Assembly: GCA_000004985.1 (NCBI GenBank)
Contig: GG738874.1
DNA length: 64,000 nt
From: Naegleria gruberi
Taxonomy: Eukaryota
Direction: 5' to 3' (one strand)
The number at the start of each line of letters is the position of its first letter. Position 1 is the stretch's first letter. Shown here one piece after another: positions 15,826-61,689 of this stretch. The translations under genes were made by a program, and so were the position numbers. The notes below the pieces were generated by a model. It was not told where the DNA came from. It ran no database searches and saw only the letters and a list, made by a program, of their open reading frames with translations.

Positions 15826-15899
15826 TACAGCGAGCGGGGCTTGAACCCGCGACCTTAAGCGTGTTAGGCTTACGATCTAACCAACTGATCTATCGCTGC
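15826..15899 (-). tRNA. tRNA-Val (anticodon AAC)
   Basis: The reverse complement folds as a cloverleaf. Acceptor GCAGCGA/TCGCTGT. D-arm GATCAGTTGGTTAGATC. Anticodon stem TAAGC/GCTTA with loop CTAACAC. T-arm GCGGGTTCAAGCCCCGC. Discriminator A. It lies 45 bp downstream of the Rho GTPase stop. Confidence 0.8.
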
Positions 15900-20929: not shown

Positions 20930-21010
20930 CGCGGTCTACAGGATTCGAACCTGTGCGGGTCGCCCCAATTGATTTCTAGTCAATCACCTTAACCACTCGG
21001 TCAAGACCGC
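20930..21010 (-). tRNA. tRNA-Ser (anticodon AGA)
   Basis: The reverse complement reads GCGGTCTTGACCGAGTGGTTAAGGTGATTGACTAGAAATCAATTGGGGCGACCCGCACAGGTTCGAATCCTGTAGACCGC. Acceptor GCGGTCT/AGACCGC. Anticodon loop CTAGAAA. Long variable arm. Discriminator G. Confidence 0.8.
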
Positions 21011-21104: not shown

Positions 21105-21185
21105 CGCAGACTGCAGGATTCGAACCTACGAAGGTTTCCCCAACAGATTTCAAGTCTGTCGCCTTAACCACTCGGCCAAGTCTGC
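21105..21185 (-). tRNA. tRNA-Ser (anticodon TGA)
   Basis: The reverse complement reads GCAGACTTGGCCGAGTGGTTAAGGCGACAGACTTGAAATCTGTTGGGGAAACCTTCGTAGGTTCGAATCCTGCAGTCTGC. Anticodon loop CTTGAAA. Long variable arm. It lies 95 bp from the Ser-AGA gene in the same orientation. Confidence 0.8.
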
Positions 21186-52018: not shown

Positions 52019-52795
52019 TTATGGAGCTCCTTCAAGAGTGAGCATTGAAAGAGGATACATTGGTTTTCCTTCATGAACATATTTAAACCATTGGAATGGT
52101 TCCATTCCTCTCAGTTTCTTTGTTCTCTTCTGGAGAAAATCATTTTCAAATTCCTCATATGAAAACCATTTAGCACATACACTTTCAAAATCAGGAATTG
52201 ATTTCAAAACTGGATCTTCTTCCAATGGTTCAGCATAGAAAATGACTCTTGATCTAGCACCTCCATCGTGATAAGGAGAATACTCAAATCTCAAAATATT
52301 TTTCAATTCGACATGAATTCCAGCTTCTTCCAAAGTTTCTCTCAGAGCTGCTTGTTGGAAAGTTTCACCAGGATCCACTCTACCAGCTGGTAACCACCAA
52401 CCCTGTGAACAGCCCTCCTCAACCAATAGGAATTTACCACTCACTGGATTTCTAATAATCACCAAAGCAAAAGAATAGGTTGGCTTTAAAGAATTCTGAT
52501 AATCGATTTCATCCTTCTTTCGTTGTTCTGGTGTAGCCTTAAAACCATGCTCATTGTAAATGTGAGTCGAGAATCCCCATTGCCTAGATCCCTTCAATGA
52601 GTCATCAAGATCCCTCTTGAGACAAATTGGACAAACCTGTTTGGTATTCTCTCTGCAGTGGACTTGCAAACAGTGAGTAATTAATTCATCTTCGGAAAAT
52701 GTCTGACCAGAATGAGTGCAAGATTCATAGGAACATTTGAATCTTTCTGGTTGTTGAGTGAGGCCTTTGGTTTTGTTCATGAGTGATGAAAACAT
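52019..52795 (-). CDS. Nudix hydrolase with an N-terminal C2H2-like zinc-finger region
   Basis: Nudix box GRVDPGETFQQAALRETLEEAGI. The N-terminus carries paired Cys/His: FKCSYESCTHSGQTFSEDELITHCLQVHC and VCPICLKRDL...HIYNEHG. True ATG at 52795. Confidence 0.72.
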   Translation of the reverse strand: MFSSLMNKTKGLTQQPERFKCSYESCTHSGQTFSEDELITHCLQVHCRENTKQVCPICLKRDLDDSLKGSRQWGFSTHIYNEHGFKATPEQRKKDEIDYQNSLKPTYSFALVIIRNPVSGKFLLVEEGCSQGWWLPAGRVDPGETFQQAALRETLEEAGIHVELKNILRFEYSPYHDGGARSRVIFYAEPLEEDPVLKSIPDFESVCAKWFSYEEFENDFLQKRTKKLRGMEPFQWFKYVHEGKPMYPLSMLTLEGAP

Positions 52796-53198: not shown

Positions 53199-54317
53199 AT
53201 GGAACGTGATGATGAAAAAATCCCTTCCGAAGTGTGGCAACATCTCATCTTTCCCTTCATTGATGGGTTTTCATTGATGAGAGGATGTTTTTATGTTTCA
53301 AAGAATTGGTCACTGATGGTTTCAGAGATGAGGAATTGCAGTTTAATTGTAGATAAGAAGAATGTGCATAATCGAATCTTGAAAAGAATTTGTAATCATT
53401 TGCCAATCATGCATGTTACCGCTTTGGATATGTCATACAATATTTTCGATAAGAATAGCATTGAAACTTTGAAGAATGGAAAGAATCTGAAATTGGAACA
53501 ATTGAATTCCTTGCATTTGGTGTATAATAATATAGGATTGGAAGTATTAACCCCATTGTTGGAATGCAATGTATTGAATAATTTAACTCGATTGAATTTG
53601 GACTCTAATATTGTACATGATGGCCTGAAATACTTGTTGGAGTGTAAAAATTTGAGAAATTTAGAATATCTAATTGTGAAGAACAATGCCATGACCAATA
53701 TTCGTAAAACACAAATAGAATCAAATAATAATTTTCCAAAATTGACCTACCTGGATATTTCCTCAAATACCATTGGAGCATATGGTACCAAACTTTTATC
53801 AGATTCTGGAATACTCAATAATTTACAAACACTCAATATTTCATACAATTTACTAAGAAATGGTGCCAAGTATTTGGGTAGAAATTCTACATTTATGGAG
53901 AACGTCACCCACTTGGACTTGAGTAATAACAATTTGAAAGTGGAAGGATTAACACAACTACTTAAATTTCTCAAATCTAGCAAACTGAAGATACTAAACC
54001 TCTCAAACAATAATATTGGAAATGATGGAATTTCAAAATTAATCGAGTGCACTCATTTAAAGAGTTTGGAAAAACTATCACTCATTGAAAATGATATTGG
54101 TGCTCAAGGAGTTAACCTACTTGCCAATACACCATTCGAAAATCTGACCTTCCTCAATCTGAATAGAAATCCAATCAGCCACAATTCAAGAAATCTCTTT
54201 CAACCAAACAATTTTCCCAAGCTCAAAGAAATCAAACTTTCCAAAGAAGTTGCGATAAAACAAGCTTCAAATTATGAATCCTATGCATTCATTTATTCAA
54301 GAAATAAATACCGATAG
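53199..54317 (+). CDS. Leucine-rich-repeat protein (RNI-like LRRs)
   Basis: 372 aa. About 10 tandem 24-28-aa repeats of the form L..L.L..N.I...G...L. Confidence 0.7.
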   Translation: MERDDEKIPSEVWQHLIFPFIDGFSLMRGCFYVSKNWSLMVSEMRNCSLIVDKKNVHNRILKRICNHLPIMHVTALDMSYNIFDKNSIETLKNGKNLKLEQLNSLHLVYNNIGLEVLTPLLECNVLNNLTRLNLDSNIVHDGLKYLLECKNLRNLEYLIVKNNAMTNIRKTQIESNNNFPKLTYLDISSNTIGAYGTKLLSDSGILNNLQTLNISYNLLRNGAKYLGRNSTFMENVTHLDLSNNNLKVEGLTQLLKFLKSSKLKILNLSNNNIGNDGISKLIECTHLKSLEKLSLIENDIGAQGVNLLANTPFENLTFLNLNRNPISHNSRNLFQPNNFPKLKEIKLSKEVAIKQASNYESYAFIYSRNKYR

Positions 54318-55043
54318 CATTTCTTCTATTTGAGTATTCTCTTGTTTTTTCCAAATCAAAACCTGAATTTATTGAGAATCACTTTTACCGCCAAAATTAT
54401 TAAAGAATCAAGTGAAAAGAAAAATTGCAACAACTCATCATCACCAGGTTGTGCTGTTTTTATAATGCTGCTATCCTGAAGATCTGTAGCGTTGACCATT
54501 ATGAATTTAAATTATGGAAAGCAATATCACATTCATCACAATGTAATCTATTCATTATCCGTCTTATAAAGGATAACAATCAAGCCAAGTTTGTGGTTTG
54601 AACAAAAACAACAAGATAACAATGATAACCAATAACATCAAGCCGATTAACATTTTCGATACGCAGTATTAATTTCATCAGCAAAAACCTTTTGTGGCAT
54701 ATTGACCACAATATCGGTCCAACAAACAGTTGTTTATCATTTAAAATTTACACTAAATATAATTGTTGATACAATCCGTGCTCTGTGCTCAGTACAGAGG
54801 AGCATATTGTATATTGTACAGCGTAATAACAATTAACCACATAACGCACTTAGTTATTGTGTCTACTACAACTCATCATCTTTTTCTCTGGTTCAACTTG
54901 CTTGCATTGAATTTGCCCATAACAAGAAAAAAAATTACTTGTCTCTAACGAAAAACCGGTTGTTAATCGACAATCATCATAATTGTATTTTCATCATCAA
55001 CCTAACGAAATTTTCGTTCATCAATTTAGACGAATATAATACA

Positions 55044-56765
55044 ATGTTTGATCCTAGCGATATGAGCAATATTCCTCTTGCTGGGACAGTTTATCCAACA
55101 GAAGAAGAATTTAAAAATCCAATAGAATATCTTGAATCTGTAAGACATTTAGGAGAAAAGTATGGTATTCTTAAAATTGTACCACCTGAAAAGTATAAAT
55201 TAGACCCTGCTGAAGACTTTGACGACCTTCAGGTAAAAGCCAATGCTTTTAAATTTATTTGCAAAATACAGAATATTAACCAACTTCAATTCAGAAATAA
55301 GAAACAAAAGTTAGAATTTGAAAATAATATTAAATCGGAGGTGGATGAATCATCATCTTTAGAAAATTCATTAAAGAGAAAAGCTGAAAATCTTTCAGAT
55401 TCGCCACAGAAAAGACTTAAAGATAACTCTGACAAATCCTTCAAACCAATAATTACATCTATGGGTGGTGATGATAGTTTTGGCTTTGAAAGAACCAAGA
55501 AGGAAATATCTCTTAAGAAATACAAGGAAATGGCTGATGAATTTTCAAGACGTCATCTCAAGTCTATACAGAAACAATTATCCCCTTCCTCACCTGAAGA
55601 GAAGAGACTCAAGACTTGTGAAAATGCAAAATCATCGACAAACTCTTCCAATCTTGATATGACTAGTCTTAGTGATGATGAAATTGAAAAAGAATATTGG
55701 AGAATTGTGAATAATCACGAAGAAACTGTAACTGTACAATATGGAAACGATTTACCTGTTTCTGATTATCAAACCTTTTTCCCAGCCAGTTGGAAACAAG
55801 GATGGGATGCAAATTTATTGCCTAAACTTCCTGATTCACTGCTATCTTTCCTTAATATTGATATTCCTGGTGTGAATACTCCAATGTTATATGTTGGTAT
55901 GCTTTTCAGTTCTTTCTGTTGGCATGTTGAAGATCATTTCATGTATGCCATGAATTTTATACATCACGGTGCTCCAAAACAATGGTATGGTATTCCAGCA
56001 TCAGGGGCAGATAAGTTTGAAGAGGTGTTTCGTAGAATGTTCCCTAATCTCATGGATGGGCAGCCTGCTATTTTACACATGCTTGTAACACAAATAAGCC
56101 CAGCCATTCTTGCACGCGAAGGTGTTCCTGTCTATAGAATTGTACATGAACCTGGTACTTTTATCATTACATTCCCTAGAGCTTACCATGCTGGCTTCAA
56201 TCAAGGTTTTAATATTGCCGAATCTGTAAACTTTACCTCAACATCATGGCTTCCTTATAACCGTTTGGCTCTTTCCAAATATTATGAATGCAAGAGAGCA
56301 ACCACTTTCCCTTACGAACATCTAATTCTCTCAGCTGTTACATCGATAATTTCTGGCAAGTCCAACCCTTCAACTTCTAAATACACATTTTCAACACGAG
56401 AATCACTCAAAGATGAGTTATCATACATTTCAAAGGATGAGAAGGAATTAAGAGAATGTTTAGCAGCACTCCTAACAGATAAAACGCCAAGACAAATGCC
56501 ACAAATATCAAATAGAAATATTGAAAAGTTAAGAACATGCTCCAAGAAGGATAATAACATCAGATGTTGTCAATGCAATTCTGATTGTTACATATCTGCT
56601 GCTGTTCTTAAAGGAAGAAAGAAGGAAGATAACTTTTGTTTAAGGTGCGCCATAGAAAAGGCAAAAGAAAGTGAAGACTTTGCTAAGAAATGTTACATGA
56701 TTGAAAGAATGACTTTGAAAGATTTAGAAATCTTGATAGAAAAGTTCGAAAAGGTGTTAGCTTGA
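55044..56765 (+). CDS. JmjN + JmjC domain histone lysine demethylase (KDM4/KDM5-like) with a C-terminal C5HC2-type zinc finger
   Basis: JmjN: TVYPTEEEFKNPIEYLESVRHLGEKYGILKIVPP. JmjC Fe(II)/2-OG site: MLYVGMLFSSFCWHVEDHFMYAMNFIHHGAPKQWYGIP...TFITFPRAYHAGFNQGFN. The C-terminus has CCQCNSDCY...FCLRC. The track start at 54939 is a TTG; the first ATG is at 55044. Confidence 0.8.
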   Translation: MFDPSDMSNIPLAGTVYPTEEEFKNPIEYLESVRHLGEKYGILKIVPPEKYKLDPAEDFDDLQVKANAFKFICKIQNINQLQFRNKKQKLEFENNIKSEVDESSSLENSLKRKAENLSDSPQKRLKDNSDKSFKPIITSMGGDDSFGFERTKKEISLKKYKEMADEFSRRHLKSIQKQLSPSSPEEKRLKTCENAKSSTNSSNLDMTSLSDDEIEKEYWRIVNNHEETVTVQYGNDLPVSDYQTFFPASWKQGWDANLLPKLPDSLLSFLNIDIPGVNTPMLYVGMLFSSFCWHVEDHFMYAMNFIHHGAPKQWYGIPASGADKFEEVFRRMFPNLMDGQPAILHMLVTQISPAILAREGVPVYRIVHEPGTFIITFPRAYHAGFNQGFNIAESVNFTSTSWLPYNRLALSKYYECKRATTFPYEHLILSAVTSIISGKSNPSTSKYTFSTRESLKDELSYISKDEKELRECLAALLTDKTPRQMPQISNRNIEKLRTCSKKDNNIRCCQCNSDCYISAAVLKGRKKEDNFCLRCAIEKAKESEDFAKKCYMIERMTLKDLEILIEKFEKVLA

Positions 56766-56886
56766 AAATAAATAGCTGCCAGATTCGAAAAACCAGTTAA
56801 TATGGGTCTGTAGTAAACACAGGTTATTCTAATTTTTATCTAAATATAATTTAACATAATGAGTATATTTTCAATATGAATAAGAT

Positions 56887-56958
56887 TCCCGTGTAGTCCA
56901 ATGGCTAGGATACCTGGCTTTCACCCAGGAGGTCCGGGTTCAATTCCCGGCATGGGAG
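56887..56958 (+). tRNA. tRNA-Glu (anticodon TTC)
   Basis: Sequence TCCCGTGTAGTCCAATGGCTAGGATACCTGGCTTTCACCCAGGAGGTCCGGGTTCAATTCCCGGCATGGGAG. Acceptor TCCCGTG/CATGGGA. Anticodon stem CCTGG/CCAGG with loop CTTTCAC. T-arm GGGTTCAATTCCC. Confidence 0.8.
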
Positions 56959-57043
56959 GATAATTTTGCATTCAATAATAATTTAAGTTAATAAATATTT
57001 CTAACTTTATTTACAGGTAATAGAGAAAAATTTGTTAACTATT

Positions 57044-58015
57044 TTACAAGGATGGTTTGACGACTGGCTTTGATGGCTTCTTACATGTCTTTCTCTTTAA
57101 GCAAATCTTCTTCTTAATTGACTTGCAACACTTCTTCTTTCCACCCACTAATTTAAATTTCTTACAAATCTTCTTTCCCTTTGAACGTTTCAAACACTTC
57201 TTATAGTACTTCTTCTTGATACATCTTGGTGGAATGACAATAAACTTGGCACAATACTTCTTCTTTTGATATTTGACACATTTAGACAATGTCTTTCTAT
57301 GCTTACAGAACTTGATGGTCTTATGCTTGGCACAGAAGAATTTTTTCTTAATGAGACAACACTTCTTAACTGATTTTCTTTCCTTACAGTATTTAACCTT
57401 CTTATACTTGGCACATTTCTTTGCCCATGAAACAATCTTACACTTTTTAACATATCTACATTTGGAGACCTTCTTATTGTAGGAATCAACAGTGTACTTG
57501 TCACAGACCTTCTTCTTTTCACACTTCTTGATTGGAACCTTCTTGAATTTCTTACAGACCTTCTTATATCCCTTCTTGAAACACTTGTTGATAATCTTGT
57601 GCTTGGCACAGAATTTCTTGAAACCCTTCTTGATGCAAATCTTCTTAGTTCCATAAGAATCACAAACTTTCCAATACTTCTTCTTGGCACATCCAACAAT
57701 CTTGTATGCATGCAAGACACACTTCTTTGTTGGCTTGCTATACTTGTCACATTTGGAATATTTCTTATGTTTGAGACATTTACCAGCACCGACAATGGCG
57801 TATTGATCACAGACCTTCTTTTGACCAACGAGTTTGTGTTTCAAACACTTCTTAATCCACTTGTGCTTTAAGCATTTTCTCTTACAATGCTTTGGCTTGT
57901 GATACTTGTCAACTACAACGACTGGAGGTTTTGTTTGATAGCTGTCAGTTGCTTGAACTGAGAGGATTGCAAGCAAGAGAAGAAGTGCAATTGAAAAGAA
58001 AAGATTTGCTTTCAT
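57044..58015 (-). CDS. Secreted, extremely Lys/Cys-rich repetitive protein (323 aa) with a signal peptide
   Basis: ATG at 58015. Signal peptide MKANLFFSIALLLLLAILSVQA. The rest is roughly 35% Lys and 12% Cys, with repeated units such as KCLKHK, KFCAKHK and KKCxKYKK. Cys recurs every 7-12 residues. No acidic residues to speak of. The overlapping ORFs on both strands are low-complexity artefacts of the same repeats. Confidence 0.55.
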   Translation of the reverse strand: MKANLFFSIALLLLLAILSVQATDSYQTKPPVVVVDKYHKPKHCKRKCLKHKWIKKCLKHKLVGQKKVCDQYAIVGAGKCLKHKKYSKCDKYSKPTKKCVLHAYKIVGCAKKKYWKVCDSYGTKKICIKKGFKKFCAKHKIINKCFKKGYKKVCKKFKKVPIKKCEKKKVCDKYTVDSYNKKVSKCRYVKKCKIVSWAKKCAKYKKVKYCKERKSVKKCCLIKKKFFCAKHKTIKFCKHRKTLSKCVKYQKKKYCAKFIVIPPRCIKKKYYKKCLKRSKGKKICKKFKLVGGKKKCCKSIKKKICLKRKTCKKPSKPVVKPSL

Positions 58016-58353: not shown

Positions 58354-58809
58354 ATGTTTGAAACAGAACAATTATTCACATCCCACACAATTTTATTAAG
58401 ACTTTTATTTGTGTTATTTTTAGATAATCACCAAAGTTCATCTAAAAAAAATACACACATGTTCGTCTCCATCAAACGAAAGAATACCCATTCACAAGAT
58501 CAAGCTGCACAACAATTTCAACTCGATGAAGGAGAACCCATTGTTTCCTTTGTCGAAGGTCCTGTTACTTTCACCTTGCAAGTAATTTTCCATCATCAAG
58601 ATGTGAATGCTAATCCTCTTCGGGATGCAACTGTCAGAATCACACAAAAAGGAAATACAAAGCAAAATACTGGACAAACTGAAATGTGTGAGGCTGTTGT
58701 TAATGTTTTGGATAGGAATGATCCGAATTTTTATGGAACAGTTTTAAAGGTGGGAAGTAGAACATTCTTGGCAAAGTGTTTCAGGTTGGATGAAGTAGAG
58801 GATTGGTAA
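58354..58809 (+). CDS. Hypothetical small protein (about 115-151 aa)
   Basis: An isolated ORF. The probable start is the internal ATG (MFVSIKRKN...). No recognisable domain. Weak call. Confidence 0.3.
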   Translation: MFETEQLFTSHTILLRLLFVLFLDNHQSSSKKNTHMFVSIKRKNTHSQDQAAQQFQLDEGEPIVSFVEGPVTFTLQVIFHHQDVNANPLRDATVRITQKGNTKQNTGQTEMCEAVVNVLDRNDPNFYGTVLKVGSRTFLAKCFRLDEVEDW

Positions 58810-58944: not shown

Positions 58945-61689
58945 TTAATGTTCCAGTGCAACAGACAACTTTTTGTCTCCCACCAAAACCAAATCTGTAC
59001 TAGGGGCCCCCTTTCTAATCTCGTCAAAATTGTTAAAATCAATCATTCCCAAAGCACCACATTTTTGTTGTTCCTTAAAAATCAATCGTTGTTCCCTTAA
59101 AATCTTTTGAGTATTATCCAATGCTCCAAATCGAATTGGCTTTGGAAGTGGTGCTCTCGCATCAACAACTGGTAAGGCATTATGAGGGATTCGTTTTGCA
59201 GGAAGAATAACCTTTACATTCTTATCTTTACCACTTGTCAGCATGACTGTTTTGTTTGTTTCATGTGAGTAAAACATTGTTGGAACATTTGCAGTCTTGA
59301 TTGAGGGATTGTCAGGGGCAACTAGCTCAGCATCAGAGGGTTTGTAAGATGACACATATGGAATTGCCTTCTTTGATTTTGAAAAATCATAATATCTCTT
59401 GGTGTCTCTGGATTTTGGTAACTTGATGTGATTGTCCATTTCCGTGGCAACACTTGAAAGTGTCTCTTCCTGAACATCTTTGTAAGGTATTGGAGAGCTT
59501 TCCAAATTCATCAACTCTGTATCATCGAAACTTATATCTGCTACAATTTCCTTCTTCTTCTCAGGTGATCTGAAAATCGATCTAGTAGGAGAAACAATTC
59601 TGTTGGATAAATATGACTTTCTTGAATAGGGCACAAGATTAATGGTTGGTGTGTATTTCAGATCAAATCTGTTGGATGAGGGCGAATCCTTATCTCCAAA
59701 GGTAACAAACAAGAATTGGCGAGGTTGATCATGATATTGCAAGTGCTCAGCCATATCTTGCTTTGGTTGAAATTTGGGTTTTTTCAGAAATTCGTATTTT
59801 GCTTCCCTTTCGGAATACATTTGATTATTTTCTGAGGGTTGATGAGCATGGGGAGCATCAGTCAGATGGTGTGAAACAATGAATAATCTTTCATTCTCTG
59901 AAAATGAAACAATAAAATCAAAAACAGGAAATGAAAGGTCCTGGCAATCATGTATAGTTATTCTCAAATGCTGATTGAGAACTGATTTAACAGTGCTTTC
60001 GTTTAGCCATGGTAAACATTCTACGCACGCAAAAATACAATCGTCAGAATGGTATTCTGGAACAATATAGCCTAGCTCATTAACCTACAAAATAGTTTCA
60101 ATACAAGTAATTAAGTAAATATACATACTGGTTGATTATATAATGTTACAAATAAATTAGAATTGAAAGTATCAATGTGGATATAGTGAGGGGAACGGAG
60201 TTGGGAAATACTAATGTTAAACCTAGATTTCAATAATTTATATTCTGATGTGGAATAATTTACAAGCCTCATCTGAAAAAGATTAATTAAACTATGTGAA
60301 ATGGTAAAAATACTTACTCTAAATACATAGAATAGTGGGTGGTGTGGATCGAGTTGAGAAATGTTAGTGTTTTTCAGAAAACCCAATTCACTTCTTTTCC
60401 TTTTTAGCATATCTTCATCAGGAGTTATGGATAGAGGAGGAAACTCTCTACTATTAGTATTCAGTCTATTATTCATGGATGATAAACTCTGAAATACGGA
60501 GGGTATTTGAGAGAGTGACATATCATGTGTTTGAGAATGGCCATTGTGACCATATCGTCTCATGTTTTCCTTATGTTTTTTGGAGACCTCCTTCTCGATT
60601 TGTTCTCTCGTTTTGATATCTATATTTACAACTTGATCAAATAAGCTTGGTTGTTTTGAGCACATGTCGGGCTTCTCAATAATTTTTGGCTCTGTCTTTC
60701 TTTTCGTAAGTTTGCTTCTTGGAGTCCCTGTTGCACTGCCAGGATCTTGAACAGGTGTCTTTGGAGAGGCAACTTCTGATCTATCAGTACTTGGAGGGTC
60801 AGAGGAGAGAGCTGCCAACTCTTCGTTTTTTTTCTCCCTCACATAGGCAAGATATTCTCCCAATGATAAATCATAGGGAAGATCAATTACTGACTCTGAC
60901 ATTTCTAGAACTGGAATTGTACGAGTCGATTTTTCTGGTGTCTTTTTTACACCTCTCAGAGCTGCAACAGGGGAAGGCAATAACAGACCAGCTCCAGATG
61001 TAATTTTAGGTTTGTACAACTTAGCCTTTCCAAACATTCTGAATCTGTAACCAACAGCAATTTGTTGCTCCTCCTCTTTCCTCAAATCCTTCTTTTGTTT
61101 TTCAGCCCTGACAAGATTTTTCTCAATCAGGACGAATCTAGTGTTACAATCATCCAAATGACTCAAATCTTTCCAAAATCTATGAATTGAAAATTATTTC
61201 AATTAAAATTAATTACCATTTTAAAGACACAACCTACCTGTGTCTCACCCTTAAGGGTATTGAGGATTTTGTCACCTCTCCTTGATTTTCACTATCCAAA
61301 TGCTCCTTAATAGCTTTAAGAGTAGTAGAAACTCCATCAACTTCATACTTTTTAGAAATGGATTGATGCTTCTCCTCTACTCCTCTCCACTGCCTGTCAA
61401 CTTCCCTAAAATTAATAGGCAACGAATGGTCATCATTTTTCAAATATTTTTTACTATTCTTTACAAATAATTCCAAACTTTCATCAGCACTCGCCTTAAC
61501 ATTCACTTGCTTATTTGTAGCACTCGCAGATCCTCTTCTTTTCTTTTTTTGTGATGACAAAATTGACCTCCTCTCCAATTCACTCCTCCTATTTTCACCT
61601 ATTGAATCCTCATCCAACTCACTCACATTTCCAATTATCCTCACTGTTGAAGTGGGAGAAGTAACCGTGGTCGGACTGATGGATTGCAT
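58945..61689 (-). CDS. Hypothetical protein, 3 exons: 61689..61238, 61180..60318, 60084..58945
   Basis: Introns 61181..61237 (gtaggt...ttcatag) and 60085..60317 (gtaagt...ttttgtag) join three minus-strand ORFs in frame (...RVRH|R|FWKDLSHLDDC... and ...LFYVFR|VNELGYIVPEY...). True ATG at 61689 (MQSISPT). The product is Ser/Lys-rich with a possible C2-like beta-sandwich segment. No confident family. Confidence 0.5.

Follow-up and report, generated by a model that had tools for sequence, protein, structure and literature searches.

A Naegleria-restricted family of cysteine-rich secreted-type proteins with a predicted disulfide-ladder beta-hairpin

An intact lysine- and cysteine-rich open reading frame

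A stretch of 64,000 nucleotides from Naegleria gruberi (contig GG738874.1, assembly GCA_000004985.1), hereafter called the window, carries near its end an intact open reading frame (ORF) of 323 codons. The ORF listing and its translation place it on the minus strand, from an ATG to a TAA, at positions 57044-58015. We propose that it belongs to a gene family restricted to Naegleria, and that its product is very likely secreted and probably folds as one giant beta-hairpin stapled by a ladder of disulfides.

The N-terminus, MKANLFFSIALLLLLAILSVQA followed by TD, displays the n/h/c layout of a signal peptide. Its residues 4-20 have a mean Kyte-Doolittle hydropathy of 2.58, and residues 3-18 are helical in the AlphaFold2 model. 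An equivalent hydrophobic N-terminus is present in all nine members for which the alignment retained this region, and also in the full-length proteins of clade D (described below). No second hydrophobic stretch or transmembrane-like window was detected in the chain, in which the highest 19-residue window reaches 0.3. With these features, secretion of the protein is very likely.

The mature chain is composed of 35.3% Lys, 10.7% Cys (32 residues), 8% Val, 6% Tyr and 3% His, with an isoelectric point (pI) of 10.16. Exactly nine residues separate 16 of the 31 successive Cys pairs, and the Cys autocorrelation peaks at lag 9 (z = 8.0 relative to shuffled sequences), with harmonics at 18, 27 and 36. 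These values bear out the initial annotation of the locus, which had described a signal peptide, a very high pI and regularly spaced cysteines. Its statement that the mature region is built almost entirely from K, C, H, Y and V is right as to the richness in Lys and Cys, but goes too far for the rest, as the five residues together account for 63% of the chain, with little His. The short repeats that it listed, such as KCLKHK, are indeed periodic, but they are better described as the footprint of a nine-residue period of disulfide rungs in one giant predicted hairpin.

The DNA itself is less unusual than the protein. Tandem Repeats Finder returned one 12-bp array of 2.4 copies as the sole array in the ORF, and the compressibility of the ORF (0.317) is only slightly lower than the window average (0.344), so the earlier description of a low-complexity tract does not hold. 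Direct repeats within the ORF are short, 60-90% identical and always spaced by a multiple of 3, as expected of echoes of the protein-level period. ORFs on both strands had also been reported: a stop-free stretch does extend over up to 146 codons of the plus strand, but plus-strand ORFs that have a start codon do not exceed 90 amino acids (aa), and this claim was thus overstated. The longest alternative ORF, of 212 aa and rich in Arg and Ser, occupies a different frame of the minus strand (57190-57828).

The lysine/cysteine frame is under purifying selection

A co-linear orthologue was found on L001, a 1343-bp contig from a public sequencing run (Logan SRR32051688). The two products share 78% aa identity, and 30 of the 32 Cys are conserved. 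In the Lys/Cys frame, the synonymous (dS) and nonsynonymous (dN) divergences are 1.13 and 0.14, corresponding to a dN/dS ratio (omega) of 0.12, and the differences are distributed 44/38/114 over the three codon positions. Omega exceeded 1 in the other frames; the one exception is the antisense mirror frame (0.26), which is filled with stops and contains no long ORF. The frame of the 212-aa ORF is among those with omega above 1; it is also open in L001 (147 aa), and by these comparisons it is a by-product of an AAG-rich coding sequence. Nucleotide identity reaches 79% inside the ORF vs 46% in the upstream flank, and conservation ends at the ORF boundaries. Judged by this pattern of substitutions, the ORF is a genuine Naegleria gene under strong purifying selection. 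The same values speak against a true gene on the opposite strand, a possibility raised in the initial annotation, since the constraint resides in the Lys/Cys frame and the mirror frame has no long ORF.

Codon usage is also distinctive. AAG represents 77% of the Lys codons, vs 46 ± 10% (maximum 61%) in 25 other long ORFs, and the GC content at third codon positions is 0.48, vs 0.23-0.36 in neighbouring ORFs. This bias fits selection at the level of translation, which may stem from a need to avoid poly(A) tracks, from high expression or from both.

The L001 copy carries one in-frame TGA (positions 631-633 of the contig), opposite the GGA codon of Gly108 in the window (57692-57694). Omega is 0.085 downstream of this stray stop, and such strong constraint makes an old pseudogene less likely than a sequencing error or a mutation that arose very recently.

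A family restricted to Naegleria

The closest database entries are N. gruberi 'predicted proteins', with single-sequence matches at E = 1e-55 to 1e-83. An exhaustive profile search of 1.84 billion representatives yielded 18 matches, of which two are artefacts driven by repeats; the real ones all come from Naegleria or from environmental sequences, and family members scored E-values between 2e-145 and 1e-15. Together with two further searches and cluster look-ups, this search defined a family with at least five paralogues in N. gruberi, two in N. fowleri and one in N. lovaniensis, plus environmental sequences (XP_002677436, XP_002678603, NAEGRDRAFT_57793, FDP41_004030, FDP41_001988 and C9374_009239 among the identifiers). 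The expansion elsewhere in the genome, which the initial annotation had suggested looking for, is thus present in N. gruberi, and no paralogue was found elsewhere in the window. The alignment of 13 full-length members spans 27-76% identity and contains 24 invariant Cys columns, a scaffold that is kept among paralogues sharing only 27-50% identity. The window protein displays all the hallmarks of the family: the signal peptide, an N-module (C-x3-C ... KGKC ... VGxGKC ... KC) and a C-module (IPxRC ... SxGxxxC ... GGKxxC ... C ... C).

Searches beyond the family were negative. Pfam returned 0 families at E <= 10 for the ORF and no domain in the ORF and eight relatives, a phmmer search of PDB sequences gave 0 matches at E <= 10, and scans of metagenome and viral contigs with one family alignment produced pattern matches and no relatives. 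The full-length 323-aa protein is absent from the collection of 15 billion proteins searched. On the evidence of these searches, the family is restricted to Naegleria, and no curated family, relative outside the genus or published description was found. The initial annotation, which recognised no homologous family, was therefore correct for curated families and PDB relatives, but homologues do exist, as Naegleria-wide 'hypothetical proteins'.

The members fall into four clades. Clade A is very Lys-rich and contains the window gene, its paralogue NAEGRDRAFT_67458, and soil and other environmental sequences. Clade B comprises N. fowleri FDP41_004030, N. gruberi P0024 and the environmental P0023 and P0025, and most of its members end in (V/I)D(S/T)YKP tandem repeats. 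Clade C includes N. lovaniensis C9374_009239, N. fowleri FDP41_001988 and N. gruberi NAEGRDRAFT_66117. Clade D, with N. gruberi NAEGRDRAFT_57793 and environmental sequences, is not Lys-rich, and in most of its members the N-terminus bears an extra Cys/Pro-rich region of ~380 residues, which has no Pfam match at E < 0.05. In P0018, P0022, P0028 and P0029 (707-742 aa), CP..G.. modules precede the ladder domain.

Several sequences retrieved along with the family required separate treatment. An apparent intron follows '...LCLGHG' in the clade B paralogues, and none interrupts the window gene; the N. fowleri FDP41_004030 gene (L003 8001-9343) spans 1343 nucleotides for 379 aa. The prokaryote-style environmental gene calls P0011, P0020 and P0026 run through this intron into the wrong, Arg/Ser-rich frame, and were rejected as read-through products. 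P0013 and P0014 were rejected as repeat-driven artefacts: P0014 (539 aa) carries ~25 tandem copies of 'CDRHKLIGAGH', similar to the 'CDQYAIVGAGKC' rung of the family (E = 2e-7), and its C-terminal part is methyltransferase-like by eye only. In P0004 (125 aa, soil catalogue SRR3989338), the N-module up to '...LKHKLVGKKKVC' is joined straight to the tip and C-arm ('DKYTVDSY...'), skipping ~100 residues; from its sequence, either the assembly jumped from one 'KKVCD.Y' segment to a similar one or the hairpin is a variant that is naturally short.

The locus is poorly represented in the reference annotation. The window sequence resembles, without matching exactly, the NEG-M reference: the 136 C-terminal residues that they share are 96% identical. 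The sole reference model covering the locus, NAEGRDRAFT_76199 (P0002 = XP_002668872, 443 aa), carries at residues 294-443 the C-terminal half of the window gene (136 residues aligned), and its residues 1-293 correspond to a SAM/PB1 protein that is absent from the window. This model looks chimeric on sequence grounds, which creates an annotation problem, as half of the gene would be fused to an unrelated protein.

A single giant beta-hairpin is predicted

Two AlphaFold2 runs were performed. With an alignment of three sequences the model was poor, with a mean predicted local distance difference test score (pLDDT) of 41 and confidence only for a hairpin at residues 148-210. It was superseded by a run with 17 family sequences, in which pLDDT averaged 79.5 and reached 90 or more at 132 residues. 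In this second model, strands at residues 48-63, 66-75, 80-92, 96-117 and 123-171 constitute an N-arm, and strands at 186-235, 241-261, 265-277, 281-290 and 293-308 constitute a C-arm. Read from the open end to the tip, strand lengths on the two arms mirror each other (16/16, 10/10, 13/13, 22/21 and 49/50), and the boundaries sum to a nearly constant i+j of 356-358.

The topology implied by the model was then tested from sequence alone. The Cys pattern is palindromic: the i-th Cys pairs with Cys n+1-i, with i+j = 353-357, in 15 nested rungs that use 30 of the 32 Cys. From the outside inward, these predicted rungs are C44-311, 48-305, 57-296, 69-284, 80-274, 89-265, 99-255, 109-246, 118-237, 127-228, 136-219, 145-210, 154-201, 165-192 and 171-186. 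The same nested ladder, with 14-18 rungs, can be drawn in every full-length relative. In permutations of the Cys gaps, with rungs matched within ±1 residue, P was 0.009 for the window protein and 0.001-0.035 across eight members.

Across the 13 members, Cys gaps that depart from nine are equal or nearly so on both arms (12/12, 11/10, 10/10, 17/18, 28/30, 32/30 and 13/13), and the gaps at one rung are 9/9 in P0018 vs 11/11 in P0028 and P0015. In clade B, one rung lacks both of its Cys, with Tyr on the N-arm and Val, Ala or Ser on the C-arm; the two positions are mirror-related, 74 residues apart, and both Cys are retained in the 10 other members. Clades differ in length at the hairpin tip, and the outer rungs are kept in all clades. 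Finally, the Gly motifs of the N-module (LVGQ, VGAGK) lie opposite those of the C-module (LVGGK, SKGKK), an arrangement that fits paired kinks. Based on the model and these patterns, the mature protein is probably a single giant beta-hairpin with a disulfide ladder. With ~128 residues per arm at ~3.3 Å per residue, it could measure ~40 nm if fully extended. The model is also consistent with the suggestion, made in the initial annotation, of a disulfide-stabilised polycationic protein of secreted type, which the signal peptide, the composition and the predicted Cys ladder support.

A Foldseek search of the model against the PDB gave no significant match (E >= 0.09, TM <= 0.10), the best hits being stem hairpins of pore-forming toxins. 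The predicted ribbon, if true, would be far longer than the disulfide-stapled hairpins in the solved structures searched.

Surface charge and the D-x-Y motif

The net charge of the ladder region is +98 in the window protein, +82 and +80 in P0003 and P0008, +49 to +67 in P0023, P0024, P0007 and P0021, and +29 to +33 in clade D. All clades are thus basic but to varying degrees, which indicates that the conserved feature is the Cys scaffold and that the extreme Lys content is a speciality of clade A. At positions ±2 from the rung Cys, on the disulfide face, Lys and Arg account for 73% of the residues and hydrophobic residues for 7-13%; at ±1 and ±3, on the opposite face, 33-43% are hydrophobic or aromatic. 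Because the period of nine is odd, successive disulfides lie on alternate faces, and both faces of the ribbon are alike. In this position analysis the ladder showed neither an unbroken hydrophobic face nor an alternating stem pattern, arguing against membrane insertion or a beta-barrel pore and in favour of a soluble, uniformly cationic rod.

Each of the seven Asp residues of the mature protein lies in a D-x-Y motif (7/7 vs 0.43 expected, P <= 2e-4), the sites reading TDSY, VDKY, CDQY, CDKY, CDSY, CDKY and VDSY. Four of the seven are at the two ends of the predicted rod. The enrichment extends over clades A to C (7/7, 5/6, 10/13, 8/15, 6/12, 11/19, 11/17 and 12/17 of the Asp residues), and is not seen in clade D. 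The motif occurs in the N-terminal tail, in the tip loop, just after several rung Cys and in the C-terminal tandem repeats of clade B, positions that would put it at each physical end of the rod. Leads for its function are cross-linking through Tyr, contact with glycans and modification of Tyr.

Genomic neighbourhood

The features of the gene and of the window are listed in Table 1. A convergent tRNA-Glu gene lies 84 nucleotides beyond the stop codon, and Rfam detected nothing else at the locus. No Pfam domain was found in the ORFs at 58354-58809, 58945-59967, 60111-61166 and 61234-61689. The neighbouring genes (NUDIX, LRR, JmjN/JmjC and tRNA-Glu) are unrelated to the family and provide no functional context.

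Table 1 Features of the predicted ladder protein gene and of the surrounding window (residue numbers refer to the 323-aa protein)
Feature	Position	Strand	Evidence
Complete intronless coding sequence, 323 codons + TAA; Naegleria-restricted family with predicted Cys ladder	57044..58015	-	ORF listing, orthologue on L001, homologues
Predicted signal peptide, aa 1-22 (MKANLFFSIALLLLLAILSVQA); probable cleavage after VQA	57950..58015	-	Hydropathy, AlphaFold2 helix 3-18, family N-termini
N-terminal tail, aa 23-43 (TDSYQTKPPVVVVDKYHKPKH), predicted disordered, two D-x-Y motifs	57887..57949	-	pLDDT < 50 for residues 21-43
Predicted N-arm, aa 44-171; 15 rung Cys: C44, 48, 57, 69, 80, 89, 99, 109, 118, 127, 136, 145, 154, 165, 171	57503..57886	-	AlphaFold2 strands and ladder analysis
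Predicted tip loop, aa 172-185 (DKYTVDSYNKKVSK), two D-x-Y motifs	57461..57502	-	Strand break; pLDDT < 50 at 178-181; innermost rung C171-C186
Predicted C-arm, aa 186-311; 15 rung Cys: C186, 192, 201, 210, 219, 228, 237, 246, 255, 265, 274, 284, 296, 305, 311	57083..57460	-	AlphaFold2 strands mirroring the N-arm
C-terminal tail, aa 312-323 (KKPSKPVVKPSL), without hydrophobic anchor	57047..57082	-	Translation; pLDDT < 50 at 313-323
tRNA-Glu(TTC), convergent	56886-56959	+	
JmjN/JmjC protein ORF	54939-56765	+	Pfam
LRR protein ORF	53199-54317	+	Pfam
NUDIX/zf-Di19 protein ORF	52019-52795	-	Pfam
tRNA-Ser pair (AGA, TGA), ~95 nucleotides apart	20930-21010, 21105-21185	-	
tRNA-Val(AAC)	15826-15899	-	

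Discussion

We propose the following model for the window protein. The signal peptide would direct the chain into the endoplasmic reticulum, where the mature chain would double back at residues 172-185, and its two halves, residues 44-171 and 186-311, would zip into an antiparallel two-stranded beta-ribbon. This ribbon would be locked by ~15 cross-strand disulfides, one per ~9 residues, with four matched kinks and a length of up to ~40 nm. With Lys or Arg at ±2 of each disulfide, a net charge of about +98 and no hydrophobic face, it may form a stiff, soluble, polycationic rod acting outside the cytosol, by multivalent electrostatic binding of polyanionic polymers or surfaces. Candidate contact or cross-link sites would be the D-x-Y motifs found towards its two ends, in the N-terminal tail, the tip loop and, in paralogues, the C-terminal repeats.

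Cationic, disulfide-cyclised beta-hairpin peptides are the nearest known kind in mechanism. Tachyplesin, protegrin, arenicin and capitellacin (PMC13001179, PMC4410394, PMC7761999) represent a class of antimicrobial peptides (AMPs) that are secretory, strongly cationic, single antiparallel hairpins with cross-strand disulfides, as predicted here. Such AMPs comprise ~12-25 residues with 1-3 disulfides and a segregated hydrophobic face, whereas the window protein has a ladder of ~268 residues and ~15 rungs, no hydrophobic face and no sequence relationship to them. Their cross-strand disulfide hairpin is matched by prediction only (AlphaFold2 and the Cys ladder), and neither their small size nor their amphipathic segregation is found. 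Since size and amphipathicity differ and the proteins are not homologous, the window protein is not a member of this class.

Precedents also exist among amoebae: genus-specific, secreted, Cys-rich proteins of independent origins, Jacob in Entamoeba and Leo in Acanthamoeba, are abundant cyst-wall proteins (PMC6541295). Like these lectins from free-living or parasitic amoebae, the window protein belongs to a Cys-rich, genus-restricted amoebal family of secreted type. Jacob (6-Cys) and Leo (8-Cys) are made of compact domains with spacers, and their binding to chitin or cellulose has been shown (PMC6541295), whereas the window protein is one continuous predicted ladder, without homology to them. 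No homology to the Cys-rich or carbohydrate-binding module domains of Jacob, Leo, Luke or Jonah was detected by Pfam in nine members or by the exhaustive profile search. The stems of aerolysin, lysenin and epsilon-toxin resemble the model as very long two-stranded antiparallel hairpins, and were the only PDB shapes aligned by Foldseek; they differ in having alternating hydrophobic residues and no disulfide ladder, and in being part of larger globular proteins. Significant fold similarity to such toxins, including their receptor-binding and cap domains, was not found.

More distant likenesses concern single traits. Granulin/epithelin modules and insect beta-helical antifreeze proteins have periodic Cys and a disulfide ladder along beta-structure; granulins are ~6-kDa stacks of short hairpins with CC doublets and the antifreeze proteins are beta-helices, whereas the window protein is one predicted hairpin, and no Pfam match to either family was obtained. 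Mussel foot proteins, trematode eggshell precursors and plant Pro-rich wall proteins are secreted, very basic and Tyr-bearing, and their K-P-S/T-Y motifs resemble the (V/I)D(S/T)YKP repeats and D-x-Y motifs of the Naegleria family. These Lys/Tyr-rich cross-linked proteins are largely disordered, with few Cys or Cys of the epidermal growth factor type, and they serve here as a lead only.

Alternative readings differ in how much of this they would overturn. That the ORF is spurious, arising in a biased tract, or that the true gene lies on the opposite strand or in another frame, would fit the stop-free plus-strand stretch of up to 146 codons, the 212-aa ORF in the other same-strand frame, and the lack of expression evidence in the literature searched. 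Its probability is close to negligible, given an omega of 0.12 in the Lys/Cys frame only (the others being above 1 or, for the mirror frame, stop-bearing), a Cys scaffold conserved among paralogues at 27-50% identity, conservation that stops at the ORF boundaries and the lack of any substantial tandem repeat. A different topology, with disulfides between neighbouring Cys (nine-residue loops) or a meander of local hairpins, carries more weight and is nevertheless quite unlikely. The regular nine-residue spacing alone would permit it, the conserved Gly turns (VGxG, GGK) could be turns of local hairpins, and AlphaFold2 gave a predicted template modelling score (pTM) of only 0.31, after a first model with a mean pLDDT of 41. 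Local loops or a meander are disfavoured because they do not predict matched irregular gaps, the joint loss of Cys or length variation at the tip. The mirror-equal strand lengths with their constant i+j, the co-insertions matched on both arms, the joint loss in clade B of two Cys 74 residues apart and the mirrored positions of the Gly motifs themselves all point to the single long hairpin instead.

Granting the long hairpin, its function may still be other than structural. Naegleria feeds on bacteria, and a phagosomal or secreted rod could bind lipopolysaccharide, teichoic acids and anionic membranes, and agglutinate or kill prey. The net charge of ~+98, the signal peptide and the predicted cross-strand disulfide hairpin, which recalls that of beta-hairpin AMPs (PMC13001179, PMC4410394), would suit such an activity. 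We consider it unlikely, as there is no segregated hydrophobic face, the protein is 10-20 times larger than known hairpin AMPs, paralogues on the same scaffold reach only +29 to +33, and an omega of 0.12 with clades stable across species shows none of the rapid diversification often seen in host-defence peptides. An extracellular binder of nucleic acids or polyphosphate, in which the twisted cationic ribbon would lie along DNA, RNA or another linear polyanion and condense or sequester it, draws on the extreme charge density and on Lys clusters recurring at each rung every ~9 residues; two-stranded beta-ribbons, a classical element for binding DNA grooves, provide a lead in this direction. This role is improbable, as the signal peptide and 30 Cys predicted to be oxidised indicate a location outside the nucleus and cytosol, and Pfam detected no nucleic-acid-binding domain. 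Least probable among these functions is a beta-barrel pore formed by oligomerising long hairpins. The initial annotation had mentioned a pore-forming-like effector, and the best Foldseek matches come from stem hairpins in epsilon-toxin, lysenin and aerolysin pores, but these matches are non-significant and reflect shape only. The chain, with 36% Lys, has neither a hydrophobic face nor an alternating hydrophobic/polar stretch, and full-length disulfide stapling would leave no room for a rearrangement from pre-pore to pore, so this suggestion is disfavoured. The other functions that the annotation listed, namely polyanion binding, a part in the wall or cyst matrix and antimicrobial action, each keep some probability.

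Several points weigh against the hairpin rod and its structural role. Support for the hairpin consists of a prediction, with the low pTM of 0.31, and of sequence statistics. The palindromy is partly trivial because most Cys gaps are nine; the P values of individual members are not independent because the members are related; and a ladder test at a tolerance of 3 proved too permissive and weak (P up to 0.7), and was replaced by tolerances of 0 and 1. C220 and C297 lie outside the ladder, as non-conserved, lineage-specific halves of CC doublets (the C219 and C296 columns are invariant in the 13 members, and those of C220 and C297 vary). As for the role, a wall or matrix component is separated from an antimicrobial or other polyanion binder by indirect evolutionary arguments alone. 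Family accessions and locus tags gave no match in the literature searched and none in the Naegleria omics supplements searched, and the text of a cyst-versus-trophozoite RNA-seq paper contained nothing relevant to the family genes.

On balance, a secreted polycationic disulfide-ladder rod with a favoured extracellular structural role is the best explanation as a whole, and we give it an even chance of being correct. Binding of polyanions is somewhat more probable, judging from the charge encoded in the sequence. By analogy, the protein may be a structural or adhesive component of the cyst wall, surface coat or extracellular matrix, an assignment that we make tentatively. This role is favoured because purifying selection is strong and orthologous clades are stable across three species, because the scaffold and its kinks are conserved while the charge varies and the family carries end motifs and modular extensions, and because Jacob and Leo provide an amoebal precedent (PMC6541295). 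A fuller picture is more speculative and doubtful in its details: rigid polycationic rods, their length tuned by rungs at the tip, would form part of a cyst wall or surface matrix, in which the D-x-Y motifs at either end would link or anchor them, for instance through cross-linked Tyr or contacts with glycans.

A real ladder would show that periodic disulfide stapling lets a two-stranded beta-ribbon grow to hundreds of residues, an architecture for which the PDB searches gave no counterpart, and the family may offer a natural scaffold for the design of stiff, charge-patterned protein rods. For Naegleria, the analysis defines a genus-restricted secreted family with two members in the pathogen N. 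fowleri (FDP41_004030 and FDP41_001988). Proteins of this family are candidates for wall, surface or secreted components, and might serve as diagnostic markers.

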